64,000 nucleotides of DNA from Terriglobia bacterium (lineage in GTDB: Bacteria > Acidobacteriota > Terriglobia > 20CM-2-55-15), in assembly GCA_963664115.2 (NCBI GenBank), contig CAXWPJ010000009.1, forward strand, positions 1,024,001 through 1,088,000. The letters run 5' to 3'. The notes below the pieces were generated by a model. That model did no database searches. It saw nothing but the letters and a program-made list of their open reading frames with translations, and had not been told where the DNA came from. The position numbers were made by a program, and so were the translations under genes. Positions 24,208 to 55,342 of the stretch are shown here, in pieces. The stretch's first letter is position 1, and every line of letters starts with the position of its first letter.

Positions 24208-24376
24208 AAAGCCTGGATCAAACCCCACCCTCGAGCAGTAGTGATCATCCAGGCCCCGGGTCAATGATGCCGCAAGCGAACTCGCCTGGAGCGCCATCGA
24301 TCGCCGTCCGCGTCCAGACTTGAGCCTTGACACTCGGTCGCGGTTTATATATTTATTTACTAGGAGATAGATCATC

Positions 24377-24697
24377 ATGGCATTGGACCCTAAGCGGGTT
24401 GGCTTGGTTTCCATCGTCGCGGCTCTGCTCACCCCGAGCTGATGAGTGTTGGCGCCGGTCCTGGCAGGACTGGGTTTGTTTTCGTCGTTCAGCATCATGT
24501 GTCTGGTCTGGCTCGAACGACTGCAGCCGCTGTTCTTCGTGCTGGCCGTCGCAGCGCTGGCTTACCAGATCTGGCTCGTGCGCGGCAGTCCACTATTCTT
24601 ACGCACCTGGGCAGTCAAGACGGTGCTGGGCGTCACTCTGGCAGTAAATGGATTGATGATTACGGGCTGGGTCGTGATAACGATTCGGTATTGGTAA
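24377..24697 (+). CDS. MerT/MerF-like heavy-metal transport membrane protein with two consecutive in-frame UGA codons (putative Sec-Sec)
   Basis: AGGAG RBS at 24362-24366 and ATG at 24377. Reads MALDPKRVGLVSIVAALLTPS-TGA-TGA-VLAPVLAGLG...LERLQPLFFVLAVAALAY, in frame with ORF 24446-24697. About three hydrophobic helices. Confidence 0.75.
24455..24473 (+). promoter_or_regulatory. Candidate bacterial SECIS hairpin (MerT-like gene)
   Basis: CCGGTCCT-GGC-AGGACTGG, an 8-bp stem with a GGC loop, 17 nt after the second UGA and 20 nt after the first. Confidence 0.65.
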
Positions 24698-24701
24698 ACG
24701 A

Positions 24702-25217
24702 ATGTTGTTAGACATCATGAGAAAAAACATGAAGATGTATCAACTGATCTTGCTACCGTCCGCGCTTATGATTGCGTTGGCGATGCCAGCATTGGCTCAG
24801 GTCGAAATGGTTGCGATGCGCACCATAGGTATCGAGTGCGGTGTTTGCGCCGCCGTTTCCGAGATCAATCTCCGACGCATCGAGGGTGTGGATAAGGTAA
24901 CAATCAGCAAGTCCAACGAATCGGTAATGATTGCCTATGGCCCGGGCGCTCTTTTCCAACCCGAAGAGATTCGCGAGGTACTGGCGCCGCTTTTTGTCCA
25001 GATTAAGGTGTTCCAGGTCCGGGCGCGGGGAATTGTCCAGGAGCAGGACGGAAAACGGTTTTTCGTGGCGGGCAAAGACCGGTTTGTTCTTGCCCCGGCC
25101 TCCCCAGGTACCCCTGAAGTTCCCTCTGGGACTCCCGTGGTGATCGAAGCGGTCCTCGACGACACGCCGAATCCTATGGAACTGACCGTCCTGACCTTCA
25201 AATCGGTCGCGGAGTAA
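24702..25217 (+). CDS. Secreted heavy-metal-associated (HMA/MerP-like) protein with an extra C-terminal domain
   Basis: Signal peptide ending PALA-Q, then GIECGVCA and LRRIEGVDKVTIS. Starts 4 nt after the MerT-like stop; true start may be 24729. Confidence 0.75.
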   Translation: MLLDIMRKNMKMYQLILLPSALMIALAMPALAQVEMVAMRTIGIECGVCAAVSEINLRRIEGVDKVTISKSNESVMIAYGPGALFQPEEIREVLAPLFVQIKVFQVRARGIVQEQDGKRFFVAGKDRFVLAPASPGTPEVPSGTPVVIEAVLDDTPNPMELTVLTFKSVAE

Positions 25218-32707: not shown

Positions 32708-34783
32708 ATGTTGAAAAACTCGTTCCGTTTCTTGGTCCCTGGCGCTTTTGGGACTTTGGCGGCACTCCTTCTGCTGACCGGTACACAAGTCGGCATGATC
32801 CTGGGAGAAGCCTCCCCCCCCCAACAGGGTGGGCTATCCCCAGAGACGAGGACTACGATCGAGTTGGAGCGCGCGCCTACACGGGAAATCAAAGATCCTT
32901 ATCCTGGGTTCAGCGCGGTGGCAGTGGATGTGGCCAATGATGAAATCATTCTCCACGACGAAAACAATGCCCAGATCATGGTGTATAGCCGGCTGGACGA
33001 TACACCGGACCGGGCGACCCTGACCGAGCCTAAGCGGATCATCGGAGGGCCGGCGACGAATATCCAGATGAACTGTGGCATTTATGTGGACCCGTTTTCA
33101 GGGGACATCTATTCAGTGAACGGCGACACCGCGGATTGGATGGGCGTGTGGACTCGTGAGCAAAGGGGAAACGTCGCTCCCACCCGGGAGTTGGAGGCTC
33201 CGCATCGCGCTTTCGGCGTCGTGGTGGATGAAGAAGCCCAGGAGCTTTTCATGACCATCCAGCATCCGCCCGCAGTAGTGGTCTGGCCCAAGCTGGCCAA
33301 GGATCAGGATGCCCCCCTCCGCATTCTGGAAGGGGACAAGACCCAATTGGCCTCGGCACAGGGAATTACCATAGACACTGAAAATCAGTGGCTATATGTG
33401 AGCAATGTGGGCGCCACGAGCCGCAACAGCTTCAATCAGGGATGGTCCCGTGCCCTGATTCCCGGCTCTGCGACCTGGGAAATTCCGAACAGAATCTTGG
33501 ACTATATTCCCGGCTCCGGTGAATTCCGCCCCCCTTCGATCACGGTGCATGACCTGAAGGCAAACGGTGACACCGCACCTTTACGCGTGATCCAGGGGCC
33601 GTTGACCCAACTCAACTGGCCGGCACACATCTCGGTGGATGTAGAGAGCGACGAGCTTTTTGTGACCAACCCGGTCACGCATGAAATTCTCGTCTTCCGC
33701 GCCAGCGCCAGCGGCAACGTGGCTCCTATTCGCGTTCTGGGGGGGCCCCGGACGGGACTCAGTCATCCGCACGGCGTGTTTGTGGACCCGAATAACGACG
33801 AGCTCGTTGTGGCTAACTTCGGGAACCATTCGTCTACCGTTTACGCGCAGAACGCATCGGGCGACACCCCACCGCTCCGAACGATCCGGGCGGCTCCTGC
33901 CGACGCACCCGCCCCTATGTTTGGCAACATCGGGTCGGCGACCTACGACAGCATTCGGGATGAGCTTCTGGTGCCCAACTGAGTGGCCTTCCCGTCTATA
34001 GCGGCGTTCGCCAGGTTGGCGGACGGTAGTGTGGAAGCGACTCGAAGGATTGCAGGACAGGCATCGAAGGTTAGTCGTGCGGCGCACGACATTACTTTCG
34101 ATCCGGTCAATGATGAAATTATTGTGGCCAATCCCAGTGCCCAGGCCATCACAACGTTTAGGGGAGGGGCCGATGGAGACGAGGCGCCCCTACGGATCAT
34201 TCAGGGTCCGAACACGAACATCCAGTCACCGGGCTACGGTGTGACCGTAGATCCGGTCAACGACGAACTGTACGTGGTTGAAGGGAGATCGAGAAATACC
34301 TTCGGTGAAAGGCGTGAGGAGTACATTCTCGTGTTCCCCCGGGAAACCAATGGCGACGCTTCACCGATTCGTGTCATCCGGGGCCCGGACACTATGCTGG
34401 AGAACACACAGGCCATAGCGGTCGACCCGGTGCGTAACCTAATCGTCGTGAGCAGCAACAATGGGGCCCTGATCTTCAACCGGACCGACAACGGAAACGT
34501 GAAGCCCCGGGCAATCATCAGGAATCTGGATGGGGGGCGCACGATCAGCTCAAACTTCCGTCTGGTTCCCGAGACAGGCTACATCGTGTCGACAAGCCGC
34601 CGAGGCGGCATCGAGGTGTGGCACATTACTGATAACGGCGACGTCCCTCCGGCATATATCCTGAACAATCCCGACGGTGACATCGGGGGGGGGCGTGTCG
34701 CGCTGAACCCGAATGCGAAAGAGGTCATCGTTGCAGGACGGACAGCCGTGTCTGTCTATTCGTTCCCGGAAATTTTCGAGTAG
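32708..34783 (+). CDS. Secreted NHL-like multi-bladed beta-propeller protein, putative selenoprotein (UGA at 33980-33982, residue 425 of 691)
   Basis: ORFs 32708-33982 and 33983-34783 abut in one frame across TGA (ELLVPN*VAFPSIAAFARLA). The blade repeat G(N/D)xxPxRxIxGxxT continues across the junction. Confidence 0.85.
34005..34025 (+). promoter_or_regulatory. Candidate SECIS hairpin, propeller copy 1
   Basis: CGTTCGCCA-GGT-TGGCGGACG, a 9-bp stem whose loop starts after a 31-nt spacer from the UGA. Confidence 0.75.
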
Positions 34784-42057: not shown

Positions 42058-44274
42058 ATGAGATTAATAAGGAAAAGAAAAGGCGCCCTGAGCATTGTGT
42101 CGCTCGCGGTGATCGCGATCGTGGGTGTCTGGGCTGGTGCCGTTGGTGAGGCGGCCCGAGAGCTGGCCCCGGAGACATCTCGATTGGTTGCCATCCATGA
42201 GATCTCTGATTTAGAGGCCTGCGCGTGGGACCAGCCTGGGGCTGGCTATTCCGATCTGGGGCCGTCCTTGCAGCCCGTAAATCTCTTGGCCGCGCTGGGG
42301 CCGCGATCTGCCTTACCTCTGATGGGATCGGTCGCACAAACGCCGGCGGAAATGCAGCGGGGACGCAACAGAGAGCCGTTCGAGGCACAGAGGAACGGGA
42401 CTGCAACGCGTGTGCGCAGGATCGCGGATACCTATCCGACGTACACCGCCGTGGGTATTAATCTCCAGACCAATGAAGTCATCCTTCAGGATAACAATTT
42501 GTGGTCGACCCGAATCTTCAACCGCTTGGACAACACCCCGCCGGACGCCGATTTAACCGAAGCAAAGAAGGTTATTCAAGGCGAACAGACCCATATCCAG
42601 TTCAACAACGGCATCTACATCGATCCGGGGAATGGGGACATCTATTCGGTCGAATCGGACACGGGCGACAGGATGGTTGTGTTTGCTCACGACGCGAGAG
42701 GCAATGCCGCACCCAAGCGCATTCTGAACACGCCGCATCGTGTGTATAGCATTGCCGTCGACGAAGAGCGGGAAGAGCTGTACGTGACGGTGGAGTACCC
42801 GCCCGAGGTGGTTGTGTATCGCAAGGACGCCTCCGGTGACGAGCAGCCGCTTCGCCGAATCGTGGGTCAACGCACAAAGCTTGAGGGTCCCCACGGTATC
42901 GCCGTCGATGTCGAGAACCAACTCTTGTACGTCAATACCTGGGGCCAGGCGACCAATTTCAGGAATCCCGGTACGGGCCGGTTCAATCCACCGGCCATCA
43001 ACATCTATCCGCTTGACGCCAGCGGGGACACACCGCCGGTGCGAAGGATTCAAGGAGACCGGACCCAAATGAACTGGCCCGGGAATATGGCGTTGAACCC
43101 CGATAATGGGGATCTGTATGTGGCCAATGACGTGGAACACTCGATTCTCGTCTTCACGGGACTGGCTTACGTCCGGGGCAACGTACCGCCGACACGAGTC
43201 ATCAAGGGAGACCAGACGGCTCTGGTTTACCCGACGGGTGTGGCTATCGATAGGACGAATCAGGAGTTGTGGGTTTCCAATCTGGGCAACGCCTCGGCCA
43301 CGGCGTATCCGTTGATGGCTGAGGGAAACGTCGAGCCCCTGCGCACGATCCGCAGTGCGCCTCGGGAACATCAATCGTTGACTTTCGGCCGCACCGCGGC
43401 GGTGGCCTATGACCCCAACCGGCAAGAAATCCTGATACCGAACTGAGTGAACCACCCGCAGATTGCGGCTTTCGCCAGGCTGGCGGAAGAGAACGCGACG
43501 CCCACACGCAAATTGGAAGGTCAACTGACGCGGCTCGGTCGGACCATGCACGATCTGTCCTACGACGCGATTCACGACGAAATTGTTGTGAGCAGTCCTT
43601 TCGCCCAGGCGATCCTGACATTCCGGGGCGGGGCTGACGGAGAGGAAGCGCCCCTTCGCATCATCCAGGGACCGCGTACCCAGATCGTCAGTGAGCGCGG
43701 CCTCGATAAGGTCACCATTGATCCGATCAATGAGGAAATCTTCATCGCCACTAGCCTCGATCAGATTCTGGTATTTGAACGGGAAGCGAACGGGGACGTG
43801 GCTCCCATCCGGGTTCTGGGTGGGCCTGACACCCGATTCACCGGGCGCCCCACCGTCCGTGTCGATCCGGCCAATGATCTCTTGTTGGTTTCGGCTCCGG
43901 GGCGCGACGAGGGGCTGTTGATTTTTGATCGGACCGCGAGCGGCAATACCCCACCACGGGCCGTGATCCCGGGGCCTTCCGGCAATCAATTTGAGATCTA
44001 CAACGACTTGATCATTACCCACAGGGTGGACACTATTTACGCCTGGAGCATCCATGATACCGGCGAGGATGTTCTTCCGATCTGGAAAATCCCAGCGCCT
44101 CTGGGCGACCGAGCCGAGACAACCAACCAACGGGGCATAGCCCTGGATCCTCTGCACAAAGAGGTCATCATTGGAACGGCGGCCGGAAATCAGGTTATGG
44201 TATTTTCCGTTCCGGAATTGTTCGATGGACCTGGCCCTTCCTCGTTGAATACGGACACGGCCGAACTTCGCTGA
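42058..44274 (+). CDS. Secreted beta-propeller protein, putative selenoprotein (UGA at 43444-43446, residue 463 of 738)
   Basis: ORFs 42058-43446 and 43447-44274 abut in frame (EILIPN*VNHPQIAAFARLA); same repeat family as copy 1. Confidence 0.85.
43469..43489 (+). promoter_or_regulatory. Candidate SECIS hairpin, propeller copy 2
   Basis: CTTTCGCCA-GGC-TGGCGGAAG, a 9-bp stem with the same 31-nt spacer. Confidence 0.75.
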
Positions 44275-53020: not shown

Positions 53021-55342
53021 ATGCACTTAACGAAAAGCAAATCTGTAATCGCAATTTTGGCGGTCACGCTGATCGGGATTGCGGGTGTCTGGGCCGGGCT
53101 TGTTCCGGAGTCGGCACCGGGAGTTGTTCCGGAGGCGACCTCGGGAACCGCCGAGAGCGTCGCTCGATTGGTTTCCGTCCAGGAATTCCCCCAACTCGAC
53201 GCCTGCGCATGGGATACCCCTGCCAGCTTCAGTTCGGGTCCGGCGCCATCGTTGAGTTCGGAAAATCTGCTCGGCGCCTTGGAGCAACGGGGGGGCGCTT
53301 CGTTTCTGACGGCTTCCCTGAGGCAACAAGCTCCGGTAATGCAGCAAGGGGGACGCGGGGGACCTGCAGAATTCGATTCCGACAGGCAGGGGACCTCGAC
53401 CCATCTGCGCACGCTGGCGGATACCTATCCCACCTTTACCGCTGTCGGCGTCAATACCAACACCAATGAAGTGATCCTGCAGGACAACAATCTATGGTCC
53501 GCCTACATCTTCAACCGGCTGGATAACACACCGCCGCGCGCGCGATTCAGCGAGCCGAAGCGGATCATCCAGGGGCCTGAGACCGAGATGCAGTTCAACA
53601 ACGGCCTCTACATCGATCCGGTGAACGGGGACATGTATTCGGTCGAATCGGACACGGGCGACAAGATGGTGGTGTTTGCCCAGGACGCCGGGGGTAACGT
53701 CGCGCCCAAGCGCATCCTGAACACACCCCATCGAGTGTACAGCGTTGCCGTCGACGAAGTGAGGGAGGAGCTCTACATCACCGTGGAGTACCCGCCCGAG
53801 GTGGTCGTGTACAACAAGAATGCCGAGGGGGATGAACTGCCGCTGCGGCGCATCGTCGGGGACAACACCCAGCTGGAAACACCCCACGGGATCGCCGTCG
53901 ACTCGAATCTCGGGCTCTTGTACGTGAACAACTGGGGCCATACCACGGATTTTGGAGATTCACGAGGTGGGACGACGGGTTACGAAGATAATGGCAGGAA
54001 TATTTCTCCTGTTGGCGATCCCTCTACGGGCCGGTTCAATCCGACTTCGATCACGATCTATTCGATCGAGGCGAACGGGGACGTGGCACCGATACGTGTG
54101 ATTGAAGGGGACCGGACGCAGTTGAATTGGCCTGGAAACATGACCGTGAACCAGGAGACCGGGGACCTGTATGTTGCCAATGACATGGATCACTCGATCC
54201 TGGTTTTCACAGGGTTGGACACCGCCGACGGCAACGTGGCGCCGACGCGGGTCATCAAGGGTGATCAGACCAAGCTGGTCCACCCGACCGGAGTGGCTGT
54301 GGACACCGTGAACCAGGAGTTGTGGGTGTCCAACCTGGGTAACGCATCGGGGGTGGCGTTTCCGCTCGAGGCCGATGGGAACGTGGCGCCCTTGCGGGTC
54401 GTACGTGCGGCGCCGGAGGAACACCAGTCGTTGATTTTCGGTCGGACCGCGGCGGTGACGTATGACCCCAACCGGGAAGAAATCCTGGTACCGAACTGAG
54501 TGAACCATCCGCAGGTTGCGGCCTTCGCCAGGTTGGCGGAGGAGAACGCGGTTCCGACACGTGTGATTGAAGGTGTGGCTTCACGGCTCGGCCGGACAAT
54601 GCATGATGTGATGTTCGATGCGATTCACGATGAACTCGTCGTGACGAGTCCATTCGCCCAGGCGATTTTGACATTCCGGGGCGATGCGGACGGCGAAGAA
54701 GCCCCCCTGCGCATCATCCAGGGTCCAAATACTCAGATCGTGAGCGAACGGGGTTTGGATAAAGTCACCATCGACCCGGTCAACAACGAGATCCTGATCG
54801 CGACCAACCACGGAGACGATCGAGACCCACTCGGAGCCATTCTGGTATTTCCGCGGGAAGCGGACGGCGATGTCGCTCCGATCCGGGTTCTAAGCGGGCC
54901 CGCCACCCAGTTCGGGGGCGGCCGTCCCTCGATGCGGGTCGACAACAAGAACGACCTGTTGCTCGTCGCTGAGAGTGGCGGTATTTTGATCTTTGATAGA
55001 ACCGCGAGCGGGAATACGCCGCCGGTTGGATGGATTCCAGGACCCAGCGGCAACCAGTTCGACGTCTACAACAATCTGATCATCACGCTGAGGGGCGACT
55101 ACCTCTACGCCTGGGACATCCACACCAGGGGCGAGGGCATCCGTCCGGTCTGGAAGATTTCAACTCCGCTGGGAGCGCGAGCCGCCCAGACGGGACTTGT
55201 TCTGGATCCTGTTCACGAGGAGGTCATCGTCGCGACCGGAGCCGGAAACCAGATTCTGGTGTTTCACGTTCCCGAAATATTCGCGGAACGCAGTGAGGTG
55301 CCACGCGCCTCGACACCATTCCGCTTCTCAGCTGAGGAGTAG
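53021..55342 (+). CDS. Secreted beta-propeller protein, putative selenoprotein (UGA at 54497-54499, residue 493 of 773)
   Basis: ORFs 53021-54499 and 54500-55342 abut in frame (EILVPN*VNHPQVAAFARLA); close paralog of copy 2. Confidence 0.85.
54522..54542 (+). promoter_or_regulatory. Candidate SECIS hairpin, propeller copy 3
   Basis: CCTTCGCCA-GGT-TGGCGGAGG, a 9-bp stem with the same 31-nt spacer. Confidence 0.75.

Follow-up and report, generated by a model that had tools for sequence, protein, structure and literature searches.

In the window, by which we mean the whole 64,000-nucleotide stretch of acidobacterial DNA that was analysed, a 106-codon gene (24377..24697, + strand; ATG 24377, TAA 24695-24697) is predicted to run through two adjacent UGA codons and to encode a three-helix MerT-like membrane protein. 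The TGA TGA pair (24440..24445, +), which would encode Sec22-Sec23, falls at the position of the Cys-Cys pair in the first helix of MerT. The gene very probably specifies a real and conserved selenoprotein with a vicinal Sec-Sec pair, and we consider the explanation as a whole probable: a 106-residue Sec-Sec membrane protein, decoded with one hairpin, that would receive a soft metal ion from a partner with an HMA domain.

The gene around the double UGA

The ORF track gives only an 83-aa stub begun at GTG 24446. The preliminary description had placed a ribosome-binding site and an in-frame ATG (24377) upstream of that GTG, separated from it by the TGA TGA (24440-24445), and each of these coordinates was verified in the window sequence. 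The Shine-Dalgarno-like AGGAG (24362..24366, +), recognized from the sequence, lies 10 nt 5' of the ATG; purine-rich stretches were seen at the equivalent place in many relatives (by eye, uncounted). With TGA read as Sec, the product has 106 residues (MALDPKRVGLVSIVAALLTPS-UU-VLAPVLAGLG...). Among 28 database homologues, 27 are 69-83-aa stubs beginning 3' of the UGA pair and one reads the pair as Trp-Trp. The family is annotated today as 83-residue hypothetical stubs without the active site, and searches built for a single UGA would miss it.

The locus set comprised 122 loci (105 distinct): 11 came from related genomes, 31 from a species-level collection, and 80 were the best of 192 metagenome matches; counts out of 105 refer to its distinct loci, which, being relatives, are not independent samples. 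TGATGA stands at the aligned site in 122/122 loci, the best 80 of the 192 metagenome matches included. Carriers were found in 13 of 35 order-wide genomes and in 23 of 401 class-sample genomes, both of which overlap the locus set, with two TGA in every match and TGA-TGA in 23/23 carrier genomes. By record title the loci belong mostly to Acidobacteriota (Terriglobia, Bryobacteraceae, Vicinamibacterales), and three are labelled—by title alone—Armatimonadota, Verrucomicrobiia and Clostridia. Across the phylum, 0/400 other genomes held a close family member, the only matches being weak, MerT-like and without stops; the family is therefore patchy.

Reads with TGC or TGT at these codons had been named as a point to check, and contigs from other runs show TGA TGA: a DNA-run contig (24100-24898, possibly from the source sample) and an RNA-library contig (24377-24549) have no differing letter. 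RNA-library contigs span the site in three of four runs, although contigs do not prove transcription. Together with the 122/122 loci and 23/23 genomes, the other-run contigs rule out a sequencing error or a recent nonsense mutation. Chance is ruled out as well, since TGATGA is invariant at the site while the true stop of the gene varies (TAA 50, TAG 35, TGA 20 of the 105 loci); in the window genome (G000) a second TGA directly follows only 8 of 972 long ORFs that end in TGA. Reassignment of TGA to Trp was rejected because long ORFs end in TGA more often than in any other stop (972/2067) and an 83-aa stub falls in the same cluster as P0011 and P0098, the entries with Trp-Trp; these two entries are most likely the product of a gene caller set to TGA=Trp. 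Separately, a second in-frame TGA TGA in the same genome (G000:C9:881481, L158) seems to be a genuine stop separating two small, coupled genes, has no convincing SECIS and serves as a chance example.

The sequence on both sides of the pair behaves as coding. A start codon lies 21 codons 5' of the UGAs in 94 of the 101 loci with enough upstream DNA, the 20 codons preceding the UGAs contain a stop in 0/105 loci, and conservation ceases before the start codon going upstream. The 21 upstream codons, whose conservation was another point to check, are under protein-level selection (pN/pS 0.245 for codons 5-21 in 97 loci, the shifted frames giving 1.6 and 2.7); in the same 97 loci Gly9 and Pro20 are invariant, yet each uses all four of its codons. 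For the last 60 codons pN/pS is 0.40 (96 loci).

These observations bear on the possibility of a real double stop, with a 21-residue leader followed either by an 83-residue protein started at codon 24 or by a +2-frame ORF from an overlapping ATG. Codon 24 is GTG, CTG, ATC or ATG—all permitted starts in table 11—in 103/105 loci, Val24 is GTG in 79 of 81 cases compared with 344 of the 816 Val codons farther downstream, and the hairpin with its U tail (see below) scores terminator-like. A GTG likewise follows the UGA directly in 12 of 13 single-UGA propeller genes, however, codon 24 is GTC or GTA in 2/105 loci, and neither TAA nor TAG occurs at the pair in any of the 122 loci. A break here would also split helix 1 at the ligand pair, where unbroken orthologues have Cys-Cys. 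The +2-frame ORF was rejected, as it is not conserved (24 codons or shorter in 31/105). We regard a double stop as highly improbable, and readthrough at both codons is the reading carried forward.

Those orthologues emerged from a profile of 43 read-through proteins, which matched 67 cluster representatives at E<=0.001. P0031 (LLTPSCCIGLPQL...CLFWLERLRP...RYQ) and P0032 are full-length and have Cys-Cys at the site (TPSCC and IPSCC); they are the only two Cys-Cys clusters found, both have a one-residue insertion after the pair, and P0031 shows 40% identity over 98 aa. The weaker profile matches that were inspected are mostly MerT members, whose Cys-Cys aligns onto UU with no gap, so that Cys-Cys at the aligned position, which had been put up for checking, was found in P0031, P0032 and MerT proteins alike. 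Of the forms that homologues might take, CC and UU were found, whereas neither Cys-Sec nor Sec-Cys forms, nor the DNA of the Cys-Cys orthologues, turned up in the 35 order-level and 401 class-level genomes. Two further proteins, P0043 and P0053, are divergent and are known as stubs that begin immediately 3' of the site. P0043 is similar to the Cys-Cys subclade, and an intermediate of the Cys-Sec or Sec-Cys type might therefore be present in the codons upstream of it.

The match of the first transmembrane helix to MerT, MerF and MerC proposed in the preliminary description holds for MerT: Pfam MerT (PF02411) is matched by 43/43 members at E<=0.1 (best 1.1e-7), while MerC is matched by 3/43 and no MerF model was listed. 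The window protein itself lies under the MerT Pfam cut-off (16.8 bits vs 32.9) and below the cut-offs of all NCBIfam models, and a Pfam MerT search of 30 genomes returned nothing above cut-off. Hydropathy fits three helices with a short, basic loop between helices 2 and 3. An AlphaFold model of low confidence (pLDDT 61, pTM 0.31), too poor to locate Cys42, has three helices, and a PDB sequence search with the membrane-protein profile gave no match at E<=10. Cys42 (24500..24502, +), placed between the first two helices and a possible third ligand, is invariant (43/43 members); it is present in the Cys-Cys orthologues P0031 and P0032 and missing from the MerT rows and the divergent P0053. It is the single Cys after the UGAs in 99/105 loci, the cytoplasmic Cys76/Cys82 pair being absent.

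The hairpin and its proposed decoding geometry

Bacterial SECIS elements lie in frame, near the UGA, and are unwound by the ribosome, so it is not self-evident that a single hairpin can serve two UGAs in a row. The hairpin at issue, CCGGTCCT-GGC-AGGACTGG (24455..24473, +), has an 8-bp stem, a GGC loop at 24463-24465 and a near-invariant 5-bp core (24458-24470); its position, stem and loop are as first described. All eight pairs are kept in 101/105 loci and the 5-bp core in 104/105. The loop is always 3 nt long with G first (105/105), reading GGC in 94 loci, GGT in 9, and GTT and GTC in one each. Across a selection of 46 sequences, 99.5% of the cells of the stem are paired, with two-sided changes at three of the eight pairs (10 cells), some of which alter amino acids (VLAGL to VQFGL, ILAGF, LLAGV). 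Slid registers all scored much lower, and 0/500 shuffles reached the observed pairing or cell count, a result to be read with the set in mind: three of the 46 sequences were added by hand, one of them for its two-sided change, and relatedness inflates the shuffle test. Additionally, codons 28-31 show hardly any third-position variation, whereas Gly33 uses all its codons. The full stem folds at -10.9 kcal/mol and the core alone at -4.1 kcal/mol. Although a 51-nt fold taken alone has z = -3.1, significance is lost when the folded segment is lengthened or shifted (z -1.4 and -0.7); the hairpin is therefore argued from conservation and covariation. No second conserved hairpin exists from +29 to +70 (best 42/105, at +64), and a second SECIS for the other UGA was accordingly rejected.

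The published bacterial consensus comprises a 3-9-nt loop with G in the first two loop positions, a stem of 4-16 bp, a distance of 16-37 nt from the UGA and at most -7.5 kcal/mol (PMC13188914). The hairpin agrees in its 3-nt loop, its 8 bp and the energy of the full stem (-10.9 kcal/mol, compared with -4.1 when the core is taken alone). Its loop begins at +21 relative to UGA1 and at +18 relative to UGA2, which leaves 20 and 17 nt between; the proposal that both codons are within SECIS range is borne out. The spacer from UGA1 to the full stem is 12 nt, as is that from UGA2 to the 5-bp core. From UGA2 to the full stem it is 9 nt, shorter than in 11/11 single-UGA comparison genes (10-24 nt), whose hairpins were chosen by the analysis's own scoring.

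A scan of G000 for in-frame TGA with a hairpin gave 1402 raw candidates, 67 of which were listed. Single-UGA loops there start at +21 (selD), +22 (Prx-like), +22 and +25 (deiodinase-like), +27 (OsmC-like), +32 (propellers) and +18 (rhodanese). If the comparison hairpins are true SECIS elements, spacings of +21 and +18 would thus both be used singly in the lineage, and the same genome would hold built-in single-UGA controls at both. The rhodanese (G000:C10:288080, L150) has a signal-peptide-like start and a TGA at the catalytic Cys position, and its TGA and hairpin are kept in 6/6 genomes.

Other candidates of the scan are of interest in their own right. Thirteen beta-propeller paralogues have N-U-V/L and a GGC/GGT-loop hairpin at +32, three in the window (TGAs at 33980, joining ORFs 32708-33982 and 33983-34783, at 43444 and at 54497) and ten more elsewhere in G000. 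The loop type is, as had been remarked, common to these and the present hairpin, although theirs is farther from the UGA (+32). Matches to the propeller motif have TGA in 13/13 cases and Cys in 0/13, and no propeller row was seen in the table of a 2026 catalogue (PMC13188914). Eight further candidates (C2:701068, C9:74840, C2:786105, C2:360043, C12:268903, C5:131175, C2:768686 and C10:243789) include two Prx-like, one OsmC-like, three deiodinase-like and one ArsC/Spx-like protein and one UVVC protein without an NCBIfam match. G000:C12:530499 (L156), which has an in-frame TGA in FLGGG-U-GFTNLF and a hairpin of 8 bp at +20 and is matched by no NCBIfam model, is possibly an unlisted selenoprotein. 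None of the six molybdopterin-domain matches of G000 contains a stop. Judged from these predictions, the genome is rich in selenoproteins.

The machinery for Sec, which had also been marked for checking, is present: selA, selB and selD pass their cut-offs in G000, selD itself with an in-frame TGA, and selC is represented by one tRNA-Sec, the sole UCA-anticodon tRNA among 52. selB passes its cut-off in 23/23 carriers; selA was not found in carrier G015 (81% complete). As selA is matched in 36/41 relatives with or without the Sec-Sec gene, co-occurrence with sel genes is consistent with decoding and does not discriminate. In two other genomes sel genes lie on the same contig as the Sec-Sec gene, selA about 6 kb away in one (G030:C3:1330816-1338361) and selB about 12 kb away in the other (G005); neither arrangement was seen in G000.

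In Escherichia coli 11 nt separate the UGA from the upper stem (PMC8659212). About 11 nt are covered by the ribosome, the lower stem unwinds, and recoding of a single UGA amounts to 30-40% (PMC4513850); two UGAs in series could accordingly yield little. For the present gene, we suggest that a complex of SelB, GTP and Sec-tRNA would bind the GGC loop and UGA1 would be read with the full 8-bp stem in place after its 12-nt spacer. One translocation would then bring the lowest three pairs to the mRNA entrance, where they would melt, and the 5-bp core would remain, again after a 12-nt spacer, such that a second SelB complex could load on the same loop. That both UGAs are decoded as Sec with the help of one SECIS, in a three-helix protein, is highly probable; this vicinal pair from a single SECIS, as initially proposed, is supported by the invariant TGA-TGA, the Cys-Cys orthologues and the one covarying hairpin.

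The geometry at UGA2 is tight, with a 9-nt spacer and a weak core, which favours an outcome with one Sec only: either the ribosome would hop from UGA1 to UGA2 on tRNA-Sec, or one UGA would be read as Cys or Trp. Hopping between matched adjacent codons is possible in principle. For E. coli, the erroneous insertion of Cys at UGA has been mentioned (PMC3892789). Against a single Sec, the orthologues carry a pair of Cys in register, so two residues are expected; TGC or TGT, which would be expected if a position were normally Cys, occurs at either position in 0/122 loci; the one UCA-anticodon tRNA of G000 scores as tRNA-Sec; and TGA, the commonest stop (972 of 2067 long ORFs), is not reassigned. 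We judge a single Sec very unlikely, and two Sec residues remain the preferred reading.

The same hairpin might serve a second purpose that is compatible with Sec-Sec decoding. Downstream of it, a U-rich tail (24474..24483, +) makes it terminator-like, and the SECIS could double as an attenuator that senses selenium: with Sec-tRNA in short supply, the ribosome would fail at the double UGA, and hairpin and tail would halt transcription before the partner gene. Such attenuation has been proposed for fdhF of T. primitia (PMC3892789). The U-tail rule holds in 55/105 loci versus 23 +/- 4 after synonymous resampling (0/500 resamplings reached it, with kin not independent), in 23 of the 44 loci that are less closely related, and in 0/11 other SECIS-like hairpins of G000; the third position of codon 34 is A in 28 of the 44 loci as against 95 of 916 L/I/V codons elsewhere. 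The tail is missing in half of the loci, however, its U run is interrupted and begins 1-3 nt past the stem, A/U-rich codons could merely prevent mispairing of the hairpin, and RNA-library contigs cross the hairpin, although contigs cannot show ends. We therefore offer attenuation as a doubtful addition.

The partner gene and a proposed metal relay

Immediately after the membrane gene lies a tightly linked partner gene (24702..25217, +), which the preliminary description had overlooked. Its product has a signal-peptide-like N-terminus (by inspection), followed by an HMA domain of MerP/CopZ-like type and then by some 70 C-terminal aa for which no family match was found. Its metal-binding motif is CxxC (CGVC; 24837..24848, +), replaced in other lineages by UxxC with a hairpin of its own. 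The partner is directly downstream in 85/105 loci (CxxC 69, UxxC 16); of the 20 loci without the partner motif, seven are on contigs too short to hold it and 13 gave no match. UxxC partners mostly have a predicted hairpin after the UGA, while five CxxC forms folded for comparison do not. The partner occurs in 23/23 carrier genomes versus 0/22 non-carriers, with the caveat that kin are not independent. G, C and C of its GxxCxxC are invariant (46/46, TGA counted as Cys).

Among PDB entries the partner profile matches HMA domains of known structure, 2lqb at E 1.8e-10 being one; domains of Cu-ATPases and CopZ come first, with MerP behind them. Taken singly, the window partner protein is below the Pfam HMA cut-off; the best family for the partner is NF041115, for 46/46 members, with the window protein at 28.5 against a cut-off of 95. 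Stand-alone second copies of the partner, without a membrane gene, were also seen (G000:C9:981705-982124; L205-L214); several are UxxC, and the longer relative L214 has UxxU.

The order of the two genes is the merT-merP arrangement. In the mercury system, MerP hands Hg(II) to Cys24/Cys25 of MerT, whence it passes to Cys76/Cys82 and then to MerA (PMC5715351). MerA, however, exceeds the TIGR02053 cut-off in 0/23 carriers (best about 401 bits vs 454), and resistance to Hg is unlikely for this reason. Beyond the partner, no conserved neighbour appeared across the flanks of 46 loci clustered by BLASTP, and no neighbour or regulator points to a particular metal. Our best reading of these gene contents is a pair that works like MerT-MerP yet is not a mer resistance system. 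The Mer-like character put forward in the preliminary description holds as far as the MerT-type pair goes.

The putatively exported partner would capture an ion with its CxxC or UxxC and pass it to Sec22-Sec23, where Cys42 would add a third ligand from the outer side. Given that both codons are decoded, we somewhat favour transfer of a soft metal ion from the HMA partner to the Sec-Sec pair. The lack of MerA and of a cytoplasmic Cys pair makes high-affinity capture or uptake of a scarce ion likelier than Hg detoxification. The metal is predicted to be Cu(I) most likely, or else another soft metal.

That same lack of MerA in 23 carriers and of a cytoplasmic Cys pair (one Cys after the UGAs in 99/105 loci) can also be taken to favour redox or selenium chemistry, in which both UGAs are Sec and the pair would undergo selenol-diselenide exchange with the CxxC/UxxC of the partner and with Cys42, no metal being transferred. 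The want of a conserved metal-handling neighbour besides the partner points the same way, as do the many selenoproteins of thiol-redox type in G000. By sequence, however, the two proteins fall into families that bind metals (MerT-like and HMA), the merT-merP gene order (PMC5715351) is kept, and the partner has no thioredoxin-fold match. We hold redox chemistry to be unlikely and prefer metal transfer to the Sec-Sec pair.

Novelty and relation to known systems

The findings indicate, with somewhat better than even confidence on our part, an acidobacterial family that has not been catalogued, with an obligatory Sec-Sec pair, one SECIS read twice and a di-selenolate metal site in the membrane; as the partner has Sec in some lineages, the relay would hold up to three Sec, and the hairpin may also switch the operon off at low selenium. 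No bacterial Sec-Sec pair was found in the published papers searched. Term searches for adjacent Sec gave nothing in the papers on BSepDB (PMC13326102), deep-Sep (PMC12013277) and Olavius (PMC1976440). A 119-family prokaryotic catalogue of 2026 has in its Table 1 a ‘putative mercuric transport protein’ with one Sec; that table gives no UU motif, though some of its rows give no motif (PMC13188914).

The family constitutes a natural, highly conserved test case for double decoding, with a 19-nt element and Cys-Cys orthologues for comparison. If the proposal is true, it would offer a way to put vicinal Sec into recombinant proteins and make the question of selenolate versus thiolate testable at a membrane metal site.

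Four known systems are closest. MerT (PF02411; NCBIfam NF010314, NF033560) likewise has three hydrophobic segments and a vicinal ligand pair of helix 1 in the same register, and MerT and MerP (TIGR02052) of mer operons likewise have the gene of the HMA-domain partner directly downstream. They differ in that the pair is UGA-UGA here, a cytoplasmic pair of the Cys76/Cys82 type is absent, Cys42 is an extra invariant residue, the partner has an additional C-terminal domain, and MerA is over its cut-off in none of the 23 carriers.

Sec forms of Mer-like proteins were suspected to have been predicted already, and indeed Cys-Sec selenoproteins of the MerT family have been published (e.g. WP_250634603.1; bioRxiv 10.1101/2022.07.06.499078). 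These, including NF045683 (MerT_CopZ_Se), share with the present family Sec at the helix-1 ligand site of MerT and the link to an HMA domain, but have one Sec where two adjacent ones are predicted here. In NF045683, moreover, MerT and CopZ are fused, whereas here they are separate genes, which score 15.8 and 12.2 bits against its 375.

NF041115 (UxxU_metal_bind) is likewise an HMA-type Sec/Cys motif. The partner described here has roughly double the length, and its motif is CxxC or UxxC; the two Sec of NF041115 are not adjacent.

Consecutive Sec residues are known as a computational prediction from algal PDI_e, which has a GUGUU motif (PMC7539508). Both cases therefore involve two consecutive Sec codons predicted computationally, but PDI_e is eukaryotic and has a thioredoxin fold, whereas the present family has a predicted in-frame bacterial SECIS. 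The eukaryotic SECIS lies in the 3' UTR (PMC8659212), so spacing is no constraint for PDI_e; unlike it, the SECIS proposed here must serve two positions as the ribosome advances onto the hairpin.
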